Positions 980-62,957 of a stretch of 64,000 nucleotides of DNA are shown one piece after another. Origin of the DNA: a plasmid. Below the pieces are notes generated by a model. That model was not told the origin of the DNA. It saw only the letters and a list, made by a program, of their open reading frames with translations, and ran no database searches. The first letter of the stretch is position 1. Every line of letters starts with the position of its first letter. The DNA lies in the NCBI RefSeq assembly GCF_053078305.1, contig NZ_CP166875.1; one strand, written 5' to 3'. Made by a program: the position numbers and the translations under genes.

Positions 980-1408
980 TTACTGTCTGCCCTCGTATCC
1001 ATCGAGATAAACCGCAGAAATGGTGTCTGCCATTAGTTTCATTTTTTTCGGCGACGGCATATCGCTGTTTGTGTATTTTCTGCCAGCAAAGGTTGTTGTG
1101 CTCCGGAGTGAGTGAAAAAATTTTTCTGAGTGGAATTCTTTTATACGTTGCTGTGCCGTTTCTGCTGATACTCCGGCTGCTTTGTCTTTCACCCCCATAT
1201 CCCGGAACTGCTGAAAGAACGGGAGCATCATACGTATGGTGTCTGCTTTCTGGGTGTAGAAGTTAGGATCAAATCCATCATCTGAAGCATAAACATAATG
1301 CCGGGTATGTCGTTCCAGGCTGGTCTTTGGTGTGCATCCTGTAAGAACGATTGTTGCTGTTATCAGAGGTATCAGAAGCAGCCTGGCAACGGCAGATCTC
1401 ATAAACAT
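980..1408 (-). CDS. putative lipoprotein
   Basis: 142-aa ORF with N-terminal signal peptide and lipobox LTGC (MFMRSAVARLLLIPLITATIVLTGC). Confidence 0.4.
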   Translation of the reverse strand: MFMRSAVARLLLIPLITATIVLTGCTPKTSLERHTRHYVYASDDGFDPNFYTQKADTIRMMLPFFQQFRDMGVKDKAAGVSAETAQQRIKEFHSEKFFHSLRSTTTFAGRKYTNSDMPSPKKMKLMADTISAVYLDGYEGRQ

Positions 1409-1522
1409 CTCCTTGCGTTTTTAATCTTGATACTCAGGGAGTTATATTTCCGAAGAGTATCTCTTATCATACGTCGGTTTACCCCAATGTGATTTGATGG
1501 TCAATGAGTCAGGAATAATCCC

Positions 1523-1801
1523 GTGAAAAAATGTGTGCCAGTCCTGCTTTTTAGTGTTCTTTCTGCTTCGGTTGCCAGTCATGCGGACAGCAATGTTTTT
1601 CAACAAAAGGCCGAGAAGACAAAAAATGGCATTGTTGCGGATGTTAATGCCAGACAGAAAATGTTCAGTAACAGACTGAAGATACAACTTCAGATCGATG
1701 AGTTGAGGGCATCTCTGGCTGGCACCAGAGATGCCCAAAAAAGAGAGGATTTGCGTAAAAAACTGGAGTCTCTGGAGCGGCAAAAGAAATCCTTACGCTG
1801 A
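1523..1801 (+). CDS. small secreted protein, function unknown
   Basis: 92-aa ORF with N-terminal signal peptide (MKKCVPVLLFSVLSASVASHA) followed by a charged, coiled-coil-like C-terminus. Confidence 0.3.
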   Translation: MKKCVPVLLFSVLSASVASHADSNVFQQKAEKTKNGIVADVNARQKMFSNRLKIQLQIDELRASLAGTRDAQKREDLRKKLESLERQKKSLR

Positions 1802-2083
1802 TGGGGGCGTATTTTCCCCGGTTTCTTCCATAACCTTTTTACCGTTCAGATATTTACGGGCGAGGCGAATGCGTCTTGCCTGGTATACCGCCGAGTAAGC
1901 CTGGGTGGGATTCACACCGTTACTGATTTCACTGACCACATGGCGCTGATCAGCCAGTGTCAGCGTGTAAACCTGTTTCTGGATGAGGTCACGGGCTTTG
2001 TCATGCTCATATCCGGCAGCAACAAGGGTGTCGAGAAGTCGTTTGTCTGTTTTGTTCAGTTTATGGCGGGGTGATTTGCTCAC
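1793..2083 (-). CDS. hypothetical protein
   Basis: 96-aa ORF, basic and hydrophilic; no recognisable motif. Confidence 0.25.
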   Translation of the reverse strand: MSKSPRHKLNKTDKRLLDTLVAAGYEHDKARDLIQKQVYTLTLADQRHVVSEISNGVNPTQAYSAVYQARRIRLARKYLNGKKVMEETGENTPPSA

Positions 2084-2214
2084 ATCGTTCTCCGTTTTTC
2101 ATGATCCAACAGTTTTATATCTCATCCTGATTTGCTCCGGTGTTCTGTTTCGACGTTCTCAATGCCTGCCTCCCCATAGTGTGATCCTTATTGCAAAAAT
2201 GAAAATCCATGCTC

Positions 2215-2277
2215 TTGACATGGACAATGGTGAGTAGTAGGTTTTTCTGTACATAAAACCAGTGGTTATATGTACAG
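2215..2277 (+). promoter_or_regulatory. SOS-regulated colicin promoter with tandem LexA boxes
   Basis: Perfect -35 TTGACA at 2215-2220; sequence CTGTACATAAAACCAGTGGTTATATGTACAG (2247-2277) matches the paired overlapping LexA operators (CTGT-N8-ACAG) typical of colicin promoters; AAGAGG Shine-Dalgarno before ATG 2322. Confidence 0.55.
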
Positions 2278-2321
2278 TGTGTTGTTTTTAATTTATTGTT
2301 TTAATTATCAAAGAGGAATTT

Positions 2322-3818
2322 ATGGCTAAAGAACTAAGTGGATATGGCCCAACTGCTGGTGAGTCTATGGGGGGAACAGGGGCGAATCTGAATCAGCAAG
2401 GTGGAAATAATAATAGTAATAGTGGGGTTCACTGGGGTGGTGGTTCAGGCTCTGGTAATGGAGGTGGTGAACATGGAAGTCAGACGGGGTGGGGATGGAG
2501 TAAAACCAATAATCCGGATGTGCCGCCTTATGTTGATGATAATGGGCAGGTGCGCATTACCATTACAAATGGTCTGGTAAAAACGCCTGTATATGGAGTT
2601 CCTGAGGCTGGCGGAAATAGTGATGTTCAGGGGGGCTATATTCCTGAAAATCCTAATGATGAAGTTGCTCGTAAGTGGGATAAAAACAACTTACCGCGAG
2701 AGATTGATGTGAGTATCGATGGTTTTAAATATCGTGTAACGCTTAATGATAATGGTAGAGCTATCGGTATTCTTCGAACAGGTGTCCGTCCTTACGTAGG
2801 GAGTGAAAAAGCTAAGGCGGGTATTATGGAAAAAATCAATCATAAAACACCTGAGGAGATATATGAGGCGTTAGGTTTTAATAAAGATGAATCTCAGCGG
2901 CAGGAAAAAGCAAAACAACAGGCTGAAGATGCGTGGGATCGTTTGCCTCCTAATGTGAGAAAATTTGATGTTGATGTTGAACAGTTCCACTATTTAGTGG
3001 TGCTTGATGATTATGGTAATGTTTTATCTGTAACTAGAACAGCTGTTCGTCCTTATGTAGGGAGTGAAAAAGCTAAGGCTGGTATTATGGATAAAGTCGA
3101 CCATAAGACCCCGGAAGAGATATACGAGGCATTAGGATTTAATAATGAAGAGCCTCAACGACAGAATCAAGCTAAAAAAGCTGCTTATGATGTATTTTAT
3201 TCTTTCAGTATGAACCGTGACCGGATTCAGAGTGATGTGCTAAATAAAGCAGCTGAACTTATATCTGATATGGGTAACAAGATCGGTGATTATCTTGGTG
3301 AATCTTATAAGTCGTTAGCAAGAGAAATTGCTGATGATATCAAAAATTTCCAGGGGAAAACCATCCGTAGCTACGATGATGCAATGGAGTCATTAAATAA
3401 AATTTTGTCTAATCCTAGTTTTAAAGTTAACAGAGCAGACCGTGATGCACTGGTGAACGCCTGGCGAAGTCGTGATGCTCAGGATATAGCAAATAAACTG
3501 GGGAATATCAGTAAGGCTTTCAAAGCTGCCGATGTAATTATGAAGATTGAGAAGGTCAAGGAGAAAAGCATCGAGGGATATGAAACTGGAAACTGGGGGC
3601 CGCTGATGTTGGAGGTTGAGTCTTGGGTTCTCAGTGGTATGGCCGCAAGCGTTGCCATGACATTGCTTAGTGCTATAATTGGATCATTCACACTACCGGC
3701 GTTAGCATTAACTGCAATAAATATTGCAGGTATTATGGGAATTAGTTACCTTGCATCATATATTGATGCAAGTGTGGCTGAAAAAATAAATAATAAATTG
3801 GTTCATTTTACTCATTGA
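2322..3818 (+). CDS. csa: pore-forming colicin, colicin S4-like
   Basis: 498 aa. Gly-rich N-terminal translocation domain (GGTGANLNQQGGNNNSNSGVHWGGGSGSGNGGGEHGS), internally duplicated central segment (TGVRPYVGSEKAKAGIM.K..HKTPEEIYEALGFN occurs twice), C-terminal A-type pore domain with hydrophobic hairpin (GYETGNWGPLMLEVESWVLSGMAASVAMTLLSAIIGSF...). Length and duplicated receptor domain fit colicin S4 as recalled; not verified by search. Confidence 0.85.
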   Translation: MAKELSGYGPTAGESMGGTGANLNQQGGNNNSNSGVHWGGGSGSGNGGGEHGSQTGWGWSKTNNPDVPPYVDDNGQVRITITNGLVKTPVYGVPEAGGNSDVQGGYIPENPNDEVARKWDKNNLPREIDVSIDGFKYRVTLNDNGRAIGILRTGVRPYVGSEKAKAGIMEKINHKTPEEIYEALGFNKDESQRQEKAKQQAEDAWDRLPPNVRKFDVDVEQFHYLVVLDDYGNVLSVTRTAVRPYVGSEKAKAGIMDKVDHKTPEEIYEALGFNNEEPQRQNQAKKAAYDVFYSFSMNRDRIQSDVLNKAAELISDMGNKIGDYLGESYKSLAREIADDIKNFQGKTIRSYDDAMESLNKILSNPSFKVNRADRDALVNAWRSRDAQDIANKLGNISKAFKAADVIMKIEKVKEKSIEGYETGNWGPLMLEVESWVLSGMAASVAMTLLSAIIGSFTLPALALTAINIAGIMGISYLASYIDASVAEKINNKLVHFTH

Positions 3819-3840
3819 TAGAAAAAGAGAGGTGATCATA

Positions 3841-4374
3841 TCACTTCTCTTTAAACGACCTATAGGAACCAATACAAAACCAAAAATACAAATATGAGAA
3901 TATAAAAATAATGGAATGTAAGCTAATGTAAAAAAACGATAGGAGGATTATATTTACAGACATCAGTTTTAGCATTTTTGCAGAACTGGTTAGCTCCGTA
4001 TCAGCAAATAAAAAAGCATATATTAAGATAGCATAAAAAAAAGTGAAAAAAATATTTATTTTCAGTAGTTGCCATGGAGATTTATCATTTTTTAATCTAA
4101 GATTTTTACATGTGTTTAAAAATAAAAGAATGGCAGTGAAAGGAGCTGTTTTTACATACAGACTCAATGTTTTGCTAAATACTGGGGTGTTTTGTGAGTA
4201 TATGGCAGGTAGGTCATTTGCTCTCAATGCTATATAGTTTAATATATTGGATGTTGGATTGTGGATATATATAATGATTATTGAGAACATTGGGATTAGT
4301 GAAATTATAAGGAAGTAAAACATCTTTGTTGCTATTTTATTTCCTTTGTCTGTTTGGTGGTGTTTATTTATCAT
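3841..4374 (-). CDS. csi: colicin immunity protein (A-type, polytopic membrane)
   Basis: 177-aa ORF convergent with and immediately downstream of the colicin gene; four hydrophobic segments; size typical of A-type pore-colicin immunity proteins; AT-rich. Confidence 0.7.
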   Translation of the reverse strand: MINKHHQTDKGNKIATKMFYFLIISLIPMFSIIIIYIHNPTSNILNYIALRANDLPAIYSQNTPVFSKTLSLYVKTAPFTAILLFLNTCKNLRLKNDKSPWQLLKINIFFTFFYAILIYAFLFADTELTSSAKMLKLMSVNIILLSFFYISLHSIIFIFSYLYFWFCIGSYRSFKEK

Positions 4375-4425
4375 CTGTTTACCTGTAAATTTATTATATT
4401 AAAGATTTTGATGAATGGCTATGGT

Positions 4426-4716
4426 TTATTTTCTCTTTAGAGAGTAATATATGAAACTTGGCAATCCTACTGGGATTGCCATTAATAAATAGAACAATGC
4501 AGATAACTTGCATAAGTACCAGGGCTCTTTTTTTAACTTTGTATTTTCTTTGATATATCTAGATATGGTTAATTTAGAGTATGGATATAGCAATACATAT
4601 ATTGACGATATAAAGATAAATAACAAAGGAGTGTTATCAGTGTCGTTAAATATTAAAATAAGAATCCATGGTATAAGTGATTCAGGTAAATTATGTAGGT
4701 AGTATTTTAAATGCAT
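4426..4716 (-). CDS. small polytopic membrane protein, possible second (E1/K-type) colicin immunity protein
   Basis: 96-aa ORF with about three hydrophobic segments, same orientation as the immunity gene, lying between it and the lysis gene; size matches E1/K-type immunity proteins. Confidence 0.35.
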   Translation of the reverse strand: MHLKYYLHNLPESLIPWILILIFNDTDNTPLLFIFISSIYVLLYPYSKLTISRYIKENTKLKKEPWYLCKLSALFYLLMAIPVGLPSFIYYSLKRK

Positions 4717-4745
4717 AAGTATTTTTACTTTTGTCGGAAAGGGAT

Positions 4746-4877
4746 ATGAAAATAATAATTTTTCTAATTAAAATATTATTCTTGTCAGGATGTCAAGCAA
4801 ACTATATTCGTGATGTACAATGAGGAACCGTTGCGTCATCTTCGTCTTCTGAACTGACGGGGATCGCGGTTCAGTAG
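4746..4877 (+). pseudogene. csl: colicin lysis lipoprotein gene interrupted by in-frame TGA
   Basis: ATG 4746 encodes [25 protein letters not shown] (lipobox LSGC), then TGA at 4821-4823, then in the same frame [18 protein letters not shown] and TAG at 4875-4877. The stop sits where colicin lysis proteins have the first Gly of the conserved ...[12 protein letters not shown]... motif. Confidence 0.6.
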
Positions 4878-5076
4878 AAAAGATCAAAGGATCTCTTGAG
4901 ATGGGGTCCCAAGCCGGAAACCTGGATTTTTCCGCTGGATTTTTCCGCGACCAGTAACGGCGTGGGGTGTCACATAAATGACCGATTGAGTGACTGTCAC
5001 TGAAACAACGATTTCTACATCAGATTTCGTCACATAACCCGTCACCTATTGGGGTCAGTTTGGATATAGAGAATTA

Positions 5077-5114
5077 GGGGGCTGGCGCTCAGTGGAACGA
5101 AAACTCACGTTAAG
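5077..5114. repeat. Tn3-family 38-bp terminal inverted repeat
   Basis: GGGGGCTGGCGCTCAGTGGAACGAAAACTCACGTTAAG, near-identical to the Tn3 terminal IR as recalled (about 36/38). Confidence 0.6.
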
Positions 5115-5468
5115 CAATGTTTTCTTCCTCCGATGCCTCTTTTTGCCCTTTAGTCACCAGTTCTGCCAGCGTGAAGGAATATGGCCGAGCATATTGATGT
5201 GTCCGTGGCAAAGTGGTGAGAGGCGTGCGATATCTTCATCATTCACGATTTCCCCCTGTGCCCTGAAATGGTCCAGGGCAGCCTGCATATAAATAGTGTT
5301 CCATAATACGACGGCGTTAGTCACCAGCCCCAGTGCGCCCAGTTGATCTTCTTGACCATCGGTATATCGCTTTCTTATCTCACCTTTCTGACCGTGACAG
5401 ATAGCTCTGGCAACGGCATGGCGACTTTCTCCCCGGTTAAGTTGGGTCAGGATGCGCCAGCGGTAACG
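5110..5468 (-). pseudogene. tnpA: Tn3-family transposase, 3'-terminal fragment (truncated and frameshifted)
   Basis: Reverse-strand translation gives ...RYRWRILTQLNRGESRHAVARAICHGQKGEIRKRYTDGQEDQLGALGLVTNAVVLWNTIYMQAALDH...LSPLCHGHINMLGH, then after a 1-nt frameshift ...YSFTLAELVTKG...EENIA-stop ending inside the IR. Only about 119 codons remain. Confidence 0.55.
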
Positions 5469-5530: not shown

Positions 5531-5755
5531 ATGTTTACATGTAACTATAGCCATGCTCGCGATAACCTGGCCTCGTTGCTCGAGCTGGCGGTTGATGAAA
5601 ATCAGCCTGTTGAGATTCAGCGCCGTAAAGGTGGCGCGGCTGTACTGGTTGATAAAGACGCTTTTGAACGATACCGTAAAGCGGCTCTTGATGCTGAGTT
5701 TGCTGAGATCATGCAAAGTCATGGGACGGCCTATACGGAGCTTTCTAAGCGATGA
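5531..5755 (+). CDS. phd: Phd/YefM-family antitoxin
   Basis: ATG 5531 with AAAGAGGAAG Shine-Dalgarno; small acidic protein MFTCNYSHARDNLASLLELAVDENQPVEIQRRKGGAAVLV...; stop overlaps the doc start (ATGA at 5752-5755). Confidence 0.75.
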   Translation: MFTCNYSHARDNLASLLELAVDENQPVEIQRRKGGAAVLVDKDAFERYRKAALDAEFAEIMQSHGTAYTELSKR

Positions 5756-6138
5756 AATTCGTTAGTTCACAGGAAATGATTGAGTTTCATGACCGCTTGA
5801 TTTCGCGTGATGGTGGCGTGGCGGGTATGCCAGAACCCGGTCGCGCTGACGCGATCATTCATCGTGTTTTGAACATGTATCATTATGAAGGTGTGACAGA
5901 TATTATGGATCTGGCTGCCGTGTATTTAGTTGCTATTGCTCGTGGTCACATTTTCAACGATGCAAATAAGCGAACAGCCTTGTTTGTTGCACAGGTTTTT
6001 TTAAAACGGAATGGTATACATATTATTAGTTCGCGTATTTCGTTTGATGAAATGCAAATTATCGCTTTGAATGCTGCAACAGGAGAATATAACTGGAAGA
6101 TGGTTTCTGACCATCTTAAAGCCATTATTTTAAATTAG
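5752..6138 (+). CDS. doc: Doc (death-on-curing) toxin, Fic/Doc family
   Basis: 128 aa with the Fic/Doc motif HIFNDANKRTA; translationally coupled to phd. Confidence 0.85.
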   Translation: MKFVSSQEMIEFHDRLISRDGGVAGMPEPGRADAIIHRVLNMYHYEGVTDIMDLAAVYLVAIARGHIFNDANKRTALFVAQVFLKRNGIHIISSRISFDEMQIIALNAATGEYNWKMVSDHLKAIILN

Positions 6139-6709
6139 ATATAGATATCCAATCAGCAGCATTTTACAATCTACTGAGCAATGTAAAAATCATATATCTT
6201 TTTGCTATATAATTTCTGGCGTATGTGCTCAATTCAGACCTGACACTTTTCCGCTTCCTCGCCCACTCGCTCACTACGTTCGGTCGCTGGGGCTGCGGCG
6301 AGCGTTTGTAAGTTTTCTCCAATACTGACGACGTGCTTCCTAGGACAATGAGTCTCTCAGAATCGGTTTCTCGAAGTGACGAGCGATCAGAATGGAGACA
6401 AATAAATTCGGGAAACGAACCTTCACGGTAAGTTTTGTCACATTTATCATCCCTAAACATGAGAATTATCACCAAAACTAACCACCCAACAAACAGCAGC
6501 GCCGGGAGCAGCATTATAAAATCATGTACAGTGTTGCGTAACGACATGATAAGTTCTCAATATGCTCTTTACCAGATTATACCAGTGATACTTTAACGCA
6601 CCATCATTAATGCTAATGTATGCATACATTAGCATTAACATGCTGACAGCAACAAGCGGCGGATTTACGTCTGGATAACGTAAATGATTGCGGTATACAG
6701 GCCAGGCGG

Positions 6710-7558
6710 TCAGATTTTCAGCCGTGCCTGTTCCTGCAGCAGTTCCAGATGATATGTAGCAATAGCGTTTACCACCCCTGCCGTCATCCGTGCGTCGGCG
6801 ATCGCTGAGTGTGCCTGCCCTTCCCAGGTCAGTCCGGCCTGGCTGGCAGCACAGGCCAGTGAAATCGTGCCATAGCGGTTGGTGGCCCCATAATATCCTG
6901 CAGCCAGCTCCATCGCACAATATACCGTCAGTTCTTCCAGCCAGTCAGCCGGATCGCTATGTGCGGCAGCAGTCTGTTTCAGAATGCGGATATCGAACCG
7001 GGCATTAAAGATAATTACTGGTCGGTCCCCGATTGCATGCCGCAGTTGCCGCGCCACATCTGTCCATGATGGTGCGCCGCAGAGTGCCTGCTCACTGATA
7101 CCATGCACGGCGGCGGCCTGCGCCCCGATGGCGACCGTGGGCTTCAGCCTGGTTTCAAACACCACCTGACCGGCCGCATCGGTCAGGCCGATTTCCAGGG
7201 CTTCCGAGGTATTATCCAGTCCTGTCGTTTCAGTATCCAGAAAGAGTGGTGCCAGACTCAGCCAGTCATATGCCTGCCGTGCCATCCGGCCACTGGTGCT
7301 GTTTAGTCGGGATAAAACGGAAAGCCGCTGGCCAGCCAGCTGTTGTTTACTCGTCAGAGGGCGTTTCTCACGCATCGGAACACAATCTGCAATTCGGTAT
7401 ACAGCGAACCTGCCACCATAAGTATTTTTATACCACTTAACCGGCTCAGCACCGGGGGCTGGCTTCATTCTGAATTCATCGCGCAGACGTCCTTTCGAGA
7501 AACACCTGTCTTCGGCAATCGCCTGCGCACGTCTGGTGACCAGCTCATCATTATTCAT
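6710..7558 (-). CDS. DEDDh 3'-5' exonuclease (DnaQ-like) with about 100-aa N-terminal extension
   Basis: 282 aa; Exo I motif FLDTETTGL, Exo II IIFNARFDIRIL, Exo III HSAIADARM; same strand and 45 bp downstream of the RelE/ParE-like toxin gene. Confidence 0.75.
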   Translation of the reverse strand: MNNDELVTRRAQAIAEDRCFSKGRLRDEFRMKPAPGAEPVKWYKNTYGGRFAVYRIADCVPMREKRPLTSKQQLAGQRLSVLSRLNSTSGRMARQAYDWLSLAPLFLDTETTGLDNTSEALEIGLTDAAGQVVFETRLKPTVAIGAQAAAVHGISEQALCGAPSWTDVARQLRHAIGDRPVIIFNARFDIRILKQTAAAHSDPADWLEELTVYCAMELAAGYYGATNRYGTISLACAASQAGLTWEGQAHSAIADARMTAGVVNAIATYHLELLQEQARLKI

Positions 7559-7603: not shown

Positions 7604-7885
7604 CTATGGCCACTTCTGTGCAGTATGCAATACTCGCAGGATATACACTTTTCCCCACTGGCTGTCGACCTCATAAACCAGAACAAAATGCGGGTGAATA
7701 ACCAGTTCCCGGGTACCTTCCACACGACCGTTGCGGCCTTTATACGGCTGCCCGGCCAGGCTGCTGGCTGAATAACCAATCCGTTCGTCCAGTTCAATGG
7801 CAGCCATCAGGTTCTGCTCCGCAATGTACTCACGAATGCGCTTCCTGTCCTGGCTGGCCAGCATGGTCCAGAATATCTCCATCAT
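7604..7885 (-). CDS. RelE/ParE-family toxin
   Basis: 93 aa; C-terminal ...HFVLVYEVDSQWGKVYILRVLHTAQ typical of the RelE/ParE fold; start overlaps the upstream antitoxin stop by 4 nt. Confidence 0.75.
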   Translation of the reverse strand: MMEIFWTMLASQDRKRIREYIAEQNLMAAIELDERIGYSASSLAGQPYKGRNGRVEGTRELVIHPHFVLVYEVDSQWGKVYILRVLHTAQKWP

Positions 7886-8151
7886 TTACCGGCAACCTTC
7901 CTGCTCATTTCATCCCGCCATGCTGCAGCAGAGGATTCGACCATGTCATGGGGAAGCACATCGCCGTGCTCGAGTTGCTGACGTCCTGCCGCAACCTGGT
8001 CACGGAACCAGGTATTATGCTGCCGTTCAACGGTCTGGCGCATAAAATCCCGGATTAACTGGGAGCCATTACGGTCCATGCTTTTTGCAGCGGCCATAAA
8101 AGCATCCTTCAGTTCAGCGTCGATTCTTAAACTCATATTAACCTGTGCCAT
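7882..8151 (-). CDS. RelB/ParD-family antitoxin (ribbon-helix-helix)
   Basis: 89 aa; N-terminal RHH signature MSLRIDAELKDAFMAAAKSMDRNGSQLIRDFM; first gene of the operon. Confidence 0.7.
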   Translation of the reverse strand: MAQVNMSLRIDAELKDAFMAAAKSMDRNGSQLIRDFMRQTVERQHNTWFRDQVAAGRQQLEHGDVLPHDMVESSAAAWRDEMSRKVAGK

Positions 8152-9931: not shown

Positions 9932-10130
9932 AAGCTGTCGCTTATGGCGGAAACAGAATGCCGTGCGTTAATGCACTGCGAAGGGTTGAATCTCTGGTAC
10001 GGTTTCATATATACTTATCCCGTATTCTGTGAGGCCCCCATTATCTTTCTCTGATTCCGCCAAGTTTCGTGGAAAGATGATGGGGGTTTTCCTTTATGGC
10101 CTTCTGAAACTTTTTTCAGCCTTCCGGCCC
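9932..10130 (-). promoter_or_regulatory. repA leader / antisense-RNA control region (inferred)
   Basis: Region upstream of repA on the coding strand; contains 5'-TTGGCG-3' on the repA mRNA strand (window 10057-10062), the loop hexanucleotide used in antisense-RNA control of I-complex/IncFII replicons. No copB/repA2 ORF upstream. Confidence 0.35.
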
Positions 10131-58848: not shown

Positions 58849-59467
58849 TGACGCACAGGACGGAAAAAATAATAGCTGCCGGACAGCAGCAACCAGCAGT
58901 CGTCCGGTAAAAAAGACAAACAAGGCGCATTGAGGTCAGCCTTCGCAACAATCCGGCGGCAGATTCTCTACCGCCGTGTTGCCCGTTAACGTTTAACTTC
59001 GTAGGCTAACGTTGCCACAAGCACCGTATTTCCCTGCTCGATACGAAATCCGCAAAGCGAATCCCTCACCATCCAGACAAAACACAGTATCGTCACACAG
59101 ACGACGATTAACATCATTAAAAACGTTCGTTGTGGCATCGCAGCCCCTCCATTGCCTTTCGGCCGTCATCGGGCTACTATAATGTTGTTGAGGCATTACA
59201 GTGGGCCCTGGGTTGATTGATAAAAAAATCGCCTGGGGCTTTCTGCTACATGCCGTCCACAAAACGCTTTCGGCATACAGCCTCAAGCGCCCGCCGCTAT
59301 TCTAATCGTTTTCCAGTCCGCCACAATCCTTTTCATGCCACCACGTATTTTGTGTCAGGGACAGAAATAAAGCCGGAAAGTGACTACGTGTGCACACATC
59401 TGTTTTCCGGGCTGCAGGCATCGTGTTATTTTCTGAAATGCAAAATAATAAAAAACAAGGACACATC

Positions 59468-62784: not shown

Positions 62785-62957
62785 TTCATAGTCAGTTATA
62801 GGCAGTTATCTTCCGGTCAGGGCTACCAACTTCGATCCGGAATCGCAAAAAAACCGGCCTCACCAGTCGGTTTTTTTGCGTCTGTACCTCCTCCCCGGAC
62901 AGCAGTTCTCTCACTCCCGTTGAATATTTCCTGTTGAATTTTACGAAAATACGGCAA

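Follow-up and report, generated by a model that had tools for sequence, protein, structure and literature searches.

The stretch of DNA analysed here, called the window throughout, comprises 64,000 nucleotides (nt) of plasmid contig NZ_CP166875.1 (assembly GCF_053078305.1) and carries a colicin operon near its start. In the order of the sequence, this operon consists of an SOS-type colicin promoter (2215..2277, + strand), a gene encoding a 498-residue pore-forming colicin (2322..3818, +), a 177-residue A-type immunity gene (3841..4374, -), a 96-residue open reading frame (ORF) that proves to be the colicin K immunity gene cki (4426..4716, -), and a lysis lipoprotein gene of the ckl type, now a nonsense pseudogene (4746..4877, +). 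All are located within a segment derived from a small ColE1-type colicin plasmid (936..4902), which also holds exc2 and two small ORFs and is embedded in a conjugative IncFIA/FIB plasmid. The window is 100% identical to CP027674.1, the 133-kb plasmid unnamed2 of Escherichia coli 2014C-3003 (human stool). An original prediction, made from the sequence letters without database searches, described the locus as a colicin S4-like operon with a duplicated receptor-binding segment and an additional small membrane protein gene between immunity and lysis.

The promoter combines a -35 element, TTGACA (2215-2220), with two overlapping LexA boxes, CTGTACATAAAACCAG (2247-2262) and a near-palindromic partner (2262-2277). 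Together the boxes form an inverted repeat with 15-nt arms that are 93% complementary, in the layout of an SOS operon, and LexA is predicted to bind them; since this is the standard arrangement of colicin promoters, the region is presumed to confer SOS control.

The colicin can be divided into an S4-type translocation region (residues 1-118), the duplicated OmpW-binding repeats R1 and R2 (residues 119-298), helices 1-7 of the pore domain (residues 299-438), and a divergent hydrophobic hairpin with the C-terminus (residues 439-498). The extent of the gene and the Gly-rich N-terminus, with 27 glycines among residues 1-118 (22.9%), are as originally predicted. Pfam models for the S4 translocation domain (PF22512 Csa_translocation, E=2.4e-29) and the colicin pore domain (PF01024) both match. 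The translocation region is 98.3% identical in amino acid sequence to that of colicin S4 (Csa) and the receptor-binding region 99.4% identical; the best match in the PDB is likewise colicin S4 (3few, E=1e-295).

The internal duplication, which had been noticed from the letters alone, is a 228-nt direct repeat (2704..3192, +), with copies at 2704-2931 and 2965-3192 that are spaced by 261 nt (87 codons) and are 72% identical; a 29-nt core inside them is 93% identical. At the protein level, R1 and R2 share 50 of 86 residues, far above chance. Colicin S4 is known to bind its receptor through two 86-residue repeats, in which the residues that contact OmpW have been identified (PMC2649078). All six contact residues are present here (K163/E170/K171 and K250/D257/K258), and OmpW binding is predicted. 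The S4 family also includes proteins of 384-412 residues with a single receptor domain, in which R1 and R2 have apparently collapsed into one (P0017, P0019, P0020, P0029, P0031 and L013 3492-4646). These occur either with the S4 hairpin or with the hairpin of the window, and forms of 517-519 residues with a different Gly-rich N-terminus exist as well. The presence of single-receptor forms in public data suggests that the duplication considered unique to S4 is polymorphic, and that the modules recombine freely.

The pore domain is of the A type (group PI: colicins A, B, N, S4, U and Y), as had been proposed. In addition to PF01024, it matches the PDB entries 1col (3e-77), 1a87 (6e-73) and 1rh1 (2e-64), and the alignment carries the invariant motif EGY.TGNWGPL..E.ESW and the long hydrophobic hairpin of this group. 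Helices 1-7 are 86% identical to those of S4. The hairpin and C-terminus are only 27-33% identical to the S4 counterpart, with a different loop length, and the description of the colicin as S4-like thus holds for the translocation and receptor domains but not for the pore hairpin. Synonymous divergence from S4 (dS, substitutions per synonymous site) rises from 0.026 over the translocation and receptor domains to 0.33 over pore helices 1-7, a roughly 13-fold jump at the receptor/pore boundary that points to a different origin rather than to relaxed constraint. The nearest hairpins found belong to two uncharacterised Col plasmids, L016 (76% identity) and L017 (56%). Among named colicins the nearest hairpin is that of colicin N (39-45%); identity to the hairpin of colicin Y is 25%. 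A database search with the hairpin alone (62 residues) returned two fragments of the same protein, the query being too short for the word index and the result therefore uninformative about other carriers.

The 177-residue immunity gene is convergent with the colicin gene and ends 22 nt past the colicin stop codon. Its product belongs to the A-type family Colicin_im (PF03857, E=1.2e-31), with hydrophobic segments at residues 19-37, 106-124 and 142-160, and is the predicted cognate immunity protein for the divergent hairpin. That the immunity protein would be of the A type was correctly foreseen, but it is not that of S4: identity to Csi is 31%, compared with 44-47% to Cni, the closest named relative, 35% to Cbi, and 28-29% to Cui/Cyi and Cri. 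Colicin N is thus the nearest named system for both the immunity protein and the hairpin, and its hairpin loop has the same length in the alignment; however, the divergence is too great to assume cross-immunity, and the translocation and receptor regions of colicin N are unrelated. A search of 5.8 billion proteins with the 177-residue sequence recovered its own cluster (270 members) and otherwise a handful of relatives at 50-81% identity. Among the relatives whose contigs were inspected, L016 (66% identical in the immunity protein) is an 8.2-kb Col-type plasmid from an SRA assembly with a 365-residue colicin, and L017 (62%) is a 6.9-kb Salmonella Col plasmid with a 591-residue colicin A-like protein. 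No relative of the 177-residue protein was found in the PDB.

Two candidate regulatory sites accompany this gene. A 13-bp stem-loop lies between the convergent colicin and immunity genes (3824..3852; folding energy -15.9 kcal/mol as + strand RNA), with a run of T following the stem on the - strand, and is likely a bidirectional terminator. Upstream of the immunity gene, a promoter-like TAGCCA-17-TATAAT (4393..4421, -; 10/12 matches in a consensus scan) straddles the junction with pColK-type DNA described below.

Two further observations concern the same gene family. In Citrobacter (L014/L015, 5001-5405), a 134-residue immunity protein, 81% identical to the 177-residue protein, is encoded beside a lysis gene with no colicin gene called adjacent to it, and is another orphan A-type immunity gene. 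In the operon itself, a run of eight adenines (4039-4046) within the immunity gene has gained or lost one A in the sister plasmids of STEC2018-553, 2018-166 and STEC648, where RefSeq records the gene as frameshifted. These differences are probably long-read sequencing errors, although real slippage that inactivates immunity may occur. Loss of immunity in the three sister plasmids is not concluded, since all of the indels fall in this one run and sequencing error is no less likely an explanation.

The type of a colicin is defined by the immunity protein that neutralises it. What this protein recognises in A-type pore-forming colicins is the hydrophobic helical hairpin; Geli and Lazdunski reportedly established this for colicins A and B in 1992. 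The strongest evidence that hairpin and immunity gene are linked here comes from STEC435. Its colicin is like S4 at all 19 positions in helices 1-7 where the colicin of the window differs from S4, yet it has the hairpin of the window. It departs from S4 essentially in the hairpin only, plus one residue in R2, and the linked immunity gene is the same as that of the window, with one amino acid difference. The invariant motif EGYETGNWGPLMLEVESWVLSG contains the junction, and the switch occurs directly after it. By sequence, the hairpin and its immunity gene stay paired even where the remainder of the pore domain is of another kind. Across nine comparator colicins, the identity of the immunity protein to that of the window correlates with hairpin identity (Pearson r=0.93, for which L016 and L017 are largely responsible; Spearman 0.64, p=0.06) and not with that of helices 1-7 (r=0.01).

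The DNA of the operon is a mosaic. Positions 936-2468 are 97.7% identical to the pColK-type plasmid NZ_CP101214.1, positions 1134-3643 are 95.9% identical overall to a pColS4-type plasmid, and positions 4408-4902, comprising the last 23 nt of cka together with cki and ckl, are 95.4% identical to the pColK-type plasmid. Where a site distinguishes pColK from pColS4, the window has the pColK base as far as about 2233 (21 of 22 such sites within 2034-2133) and mostly the pColS4 base from about 2434 onwards (93 of 110). Identity to csa, the S4 colicin gene, is 98-100% over 2334-3233, falls to 85-92% over 3234-3643, and is lost beyond that point; for 3644-4407, none of the named Col plasmids is a close match. 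Sliding identity and dS together delimit a module of non-S4 origin, consisting of pore domain and A-type immunity gene, at 3234..4407. This module is collinear with L016 over 3243-4358 (75.6% nt identity) and with L017 over 3234-4415 (70.9%), which makes the pore domain and immunity gene a unit shared with otherwise different colicins.

Compared with the colicin K operon (cka-cki-ckl of pColK), the window retains exc2, the two small ORFs, the promoter to about 2233, the last 23 nt of cka, cki and ckl at 95-98% DNA identity, and the first 49 or so codons also correspond. The exc2 gene (980..1408, -; NCBIfam NF033828, E=3.7e-53) encodes an entry-exclusion lipoprotein of the Exc2 family and is located upstream of cka in pColK as well. 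The remnant of cka (4408..4430, +) overlaps the 3' end of cki; the match to the pColK record begins at its position 3720, and cka ends there at 3742. What differs is that the Tsx-binding receptor domain and E1/K-type pore domain of colicin K have been replaced by an S4-type colicin and an A-type immunity gene. The pColK-type backbone carries cki and ckl with the end of cka, so that the presence of cki follows from the mosaic.

The 96-residue ORF had been suspected to be an immunity gene of the E1/K class on account of its size, and this is what it is. The CKI model (PF17500) matches it from end to end (E=2.7e-54, model positions 1-95 of 96), 91 of its 96 residues are identical to Cki of NZ_CP101214.1, and it is 94-96% identical to Cki proteins encoded beside genuine cka genes, compared with 65.6% to Cti, which confers immunity to colicin 10. 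In the sister plasmids the ORF already bears the name cki in RefSeq. No colicin K gene adjoins it, no colicin K pore domain is encoded in the operon, and no part of the operon recurred when it was compared with the entire window by blastn. The suggestion that this could be an orphan immunity gene against a related colicin therefore holds as far as the sequence goes.

In the lysis gene, the original prediction overlooked an in-frame TGA at codon 26 (4821-4823) where pColK has GGA. The lipobox, LSGC, is present, but the predicted product is a 25-residue precursor with a mature peptide of 10 residues after the lipobox cysteine, whereas an intact precursor has about 43-51 residues, an LxxC lipobox and a mature part of about 28-33. 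The nonsense codon suggests that active release has probably been lost or reduced. Of nine sister plasmids in PLSDB, seven share it; STEC17-183 and STEC2018-553 have an intact gene, and that of pN51a is flagged in RefSeq as a pseudogene with an internal stop. Colicins of large plasmids can lack lysis genes, and loss of lysis after a move to a large low-copy plasmid would resemble that condition. In pSTEC2018_166-a (L021), an IS91-family element has inserted at the equivalent of 4849, within the already truncated lysis gene.

Taken together, the locus is most probably a recombinant, SOS-inducible pore-forming colicin operon that arose on a pColK-type backbone and was subsequently taken up by an IncF plasmid. 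The resident cka would have been replaced from the promoter or 5' region (about 2200-2330) to a point 23 nt before its stop codon (about 4408). The replacing cassette would have consisted of the S4 translocation and duplicated OmpW-binding domains, followed by a different A-type pore domain with its own convergent 177-residue immunity gene, and the resident cki and ckl would have been left behind. In the model proposed here, DNA damage leads to release of LexA and production of the colicin, which would bind OmpW through R1 and R2, cross the outer membrane by the colicin S4 route (OmpF and the Tol system), and depolarise the inner membrane through its A-type pore domain. The 177-residue product, a putative four-segment membrane protein, would, unlike Csi, recognise the divergent hairpin of helices 8-9 and block the pore. 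Cki, expressed from its own promoter, would additionally guard the host against the colicin K of competitors. With the lysis gene truncated, release may be reduced or may proceed by other routes.

If the hairpin is recognised by the 177-residue protein and not by Csi, the pair represents an immunity group distinct from that of S4, and probably also from those of colicins N, A, B, U/Y and R. It is somewhat more probable than otherwise that the hairpin and immunity protein constitute a previously unnamed immunity group on an S4-type, OmpW-targeting chassis. In that case, the colicin would be expected to kill cells that are immune to S4, and colicin S4 to kill the producers of this colicin.

Several points weigh against this interpretation or limit it. 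The direction of the recombination event admits alternatives: a cassette may have entered a pColK-type plasmid, or an S4-type plasmid may have gained the cki-ckl end. The operon could be decaying, given its truncated lysis gene and the homopolymer frameshifts on record for three sister plasmids, in either the immunity or the colicin gene. The colicin-immunity pairs compared are few and interrelated, and the rank correlation is marginal (p=0.06), so that it is supportive only. As for the promoter-like sites, they match the consensus within AT-rich DNA, and shuffled sequence would be expected to yield at least as many. The dN/dS ratio of cki cannot separate purifying selection from recent acquisition. 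Finally, all of the specificities discussed here are derived from sequence comparison.

The role of cki admits the most serious alternative. It may be that the gene is a silent relic of recombination, neither expressed nor selected, which offers no protection. Consistent with this, cki came with the backbone and not by an independent gain, the adjoining ckl is already a pseudogene in the majority of the sister plasmids, and the divergence from cki of pColK is so small that an intact ORF is weak evidence of selection. However, cki is full-length in every sister plasmid examined (five versions were aligned, and it is intact in all that are annotated), its allelic variants in STEC17-183 and STEC2018-553 are undisrupted, and its dN/dS is 0.2-0.5, albeit from 9-17 substitutions only. 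A candidate promoter, TTGACA-18-TTTAAT (4767..4796, -), has also been kept; it overlaps the lysis gene, which is read from the other strand, and precedes the cki start codon by 50 nt, in a stretch that is 95% identical to pColK, and its function is predicted from the match alone. Orphan immunity genes are, moreover, reported to be widespread and maintained on E. coli plasmids (PMC12546727). A silent relic is accordingly rather improbable, and cki most likely functions as an orphan gene conferring immunity to colicin K.

A dual immunity, in which the resident colicin has to be countered by both proteins, is far less probable still. Adjacent and on the same strand, the two genes could share a transcript from the cki promoter. 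However, the pore domain is A-type with a long A-type hairpin and is only 28% identical to that of colicin K over helices 1-7; the L016 and L017 relatives, which have the same kind of pore and immunity module, have a single immunity gene with a lysis gene immediately after it; and the pColK backbone already explains the presence of cki.

An extra immunity gene in this position has a parallel in the plasmids of nuclease E colicins, where a second, non-cognate immunity gene can occur between the cognate immunity gene and the lysis gene, as with the E8 immunity gene on pColE3-CA38. The order of colicin, cognate immunity, extra immunity and lysis genes is the same, and in both cases the additional gene is a leftover of recombination between Col plasmids. 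The E-colicin immunity proteins differ in being soluble nuclease inhibitors transcribed with the colicin. Here, two inner-membrane proteins are encoded on the opposite strand, and they belong to two structural classes, the A type with four segments and the E1/K type with three.

The RefSeq annotation of the sister plasmids suggests a different identity for the 177-residue protein, which the Prokaryotic Genome Annotation Pipeline (PGAP) labels colicin immunity protein Cui, that is, immunity to colicin U. The protein is only 28.7% identical to the Cui/Cyi encoded beside cya (colicin Y/U-type), the linked hairpin is 25% identical to that of colicin Y, and Cni (44-47%) and uncharacterised proteins (61-81%) are closer to it. 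PGAP also gives this name to several different members of Colicin_im, one of them encoded on a pColS4-type plasmid. The low identity and the shared label indicate that Cui is a family-level name and not an identification, and a true colicin U immunity protein is very unlikely.

Equally implausible, and refuted by the sequence comparisons, is the original reading of an ordinary colicin S4 with cognate Csi, for which the near-identical translocation and receptor domains (98-99%), the duplication, the sizes of colicin (498 against 499 residues) and immunity protein (177 against 179) and the best structural match to 3few all speak, but which is contradicted by the low identity of immunity protein and hairpin, the absence of DNA similarity to pColS4 past 3643 and the jump in dS in the pore domain.

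The relationship to the colicin S4 operon (csa-csi-csl of pColS4; structure 3FEW) is thus a partial one. The targeting domains with their OmpW-contact residues, the A-type pore, the convergent immunity gene, the downstream lysis gene and the SOS boxes are held in common. The window differs in pore helices 1-7, in the hairpin and in the immunity protein, which by sequence place it outside the S4 type as that type is defined by immunity, and it also has a broken K-type lysis gene in place of csl, the extra cki, and a 133-kb IncF plasmid as its carrier in place of a 7-kb Col plasmid.

All components of the operon belong to known families, and shuffling of domains and immunity genes between Col plasmids is the accepted mode of colicin evolution. 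The understanding of how colicins act is unchanged. The findings bear instead on typing and on evolution. Typing by PCR or BLAST on the 5' two-thirds of csa would call this operon colicin S4 despite its different predicted immunity group, and the RefSeq name Cui on the immunity gene is misleading. The crossovers at the promoter and N-terminus, at the receptor/pore boundary, and in the invariant motif before the hairpin are a record of how pore-forming colicins diversify, and they illustrate how, when a toxin is replaced, its immunity gene can persist and add further protection.

Ready constructs for the study of immunity determined by the hairpin are available as natural alleles: S4 itself, its version carrying the new hairpin, the complete new pore domain, and forms with one or two R domains. 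If immunity tracks the hairpin alone in these alleles, they would constitute a direct in vivo demonstration that helices 8-9 suffice to switch A-type specificity. If the proposed reading is correct, this would also be the first described pore-forming colicin operon with two structurally different classes of membrane immunity protein. The useful points are therefore the probable new immunity group behind an S4 front end, the natural hairpin-swap series, and the tandem of A-type and K-type immunity genes.

PLSDB has the complete operon on 9 of its 72,556 plasmids, and 7 of 5,426 complete E. coli genomes contain it. In every case it is plasmid-borne, the plasmids are IncFIA wherever the replicon has been typed, and many of the hosts are Shiga toxin-producing E. 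coli (STEC) from human stool. The 90% cluster of the colicin contains 637 member sequences. A literature search found no paper that names or describes this variant; older colicin literature was thinly covered, and an earlier description is possible. A 2026 preprint that mentions colicin K immunity concerns the genuine colicin K of strain ED1a and is irrelevant to this operon. PADLOC reported nothing for the operon proteins, and NCBIfam hidden Markov models matched none of the colicin, the two immunity proteins and the lysis peptide; the PGAP names evidently derive from other rules, and Pfam was used instead.

Several further features lie beyond the operon. Directly 3' of the captured Col segment lies a remnant of a Tn3-family transposon (5074-5465), consisting of a sequence resembling a terminal inverted repeat, GGGGCTGGCGCTCAGTGGAACGAAAACTCACGTTAAG (about 5077-5114), and a minus-strand fragment of a transposase C-terminus, which RefSeq annotates as a transposase pseudogene in the sister plasmids. 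The operon is also flanked by plasmid-maintenance genes, a Phd/YefM-Doc toxin-antitoxin pair (5531-6138) and a RelE/ParE-type pair (7604-8151). A 282-residue protein with a DEDDh-type exonuclease domain is encoded nearby (6710-7558; PADLOC DEDDh, E=1e-28). An isolated stretch of 59 nt (6246-6304) is 83-85% identical to the interval between the replication gene and rop in pColK, pColS4 and pColN plasmids; it matches no Rfam family, RNAI included, and may be a further scrap of a ColE1-type plasmid. Elsewhere in the window, matches above the Rfam gathering threshold comprise a repZ regulatory pseudoknot of IncI/IncF-type replication control (9944-10094, -), a sok antitoxin RNA of the hok/sok system (59136-59292, -) and an AgrB antisense RNA (62792-62879, +), all of which are ordinary features of large plasmids.

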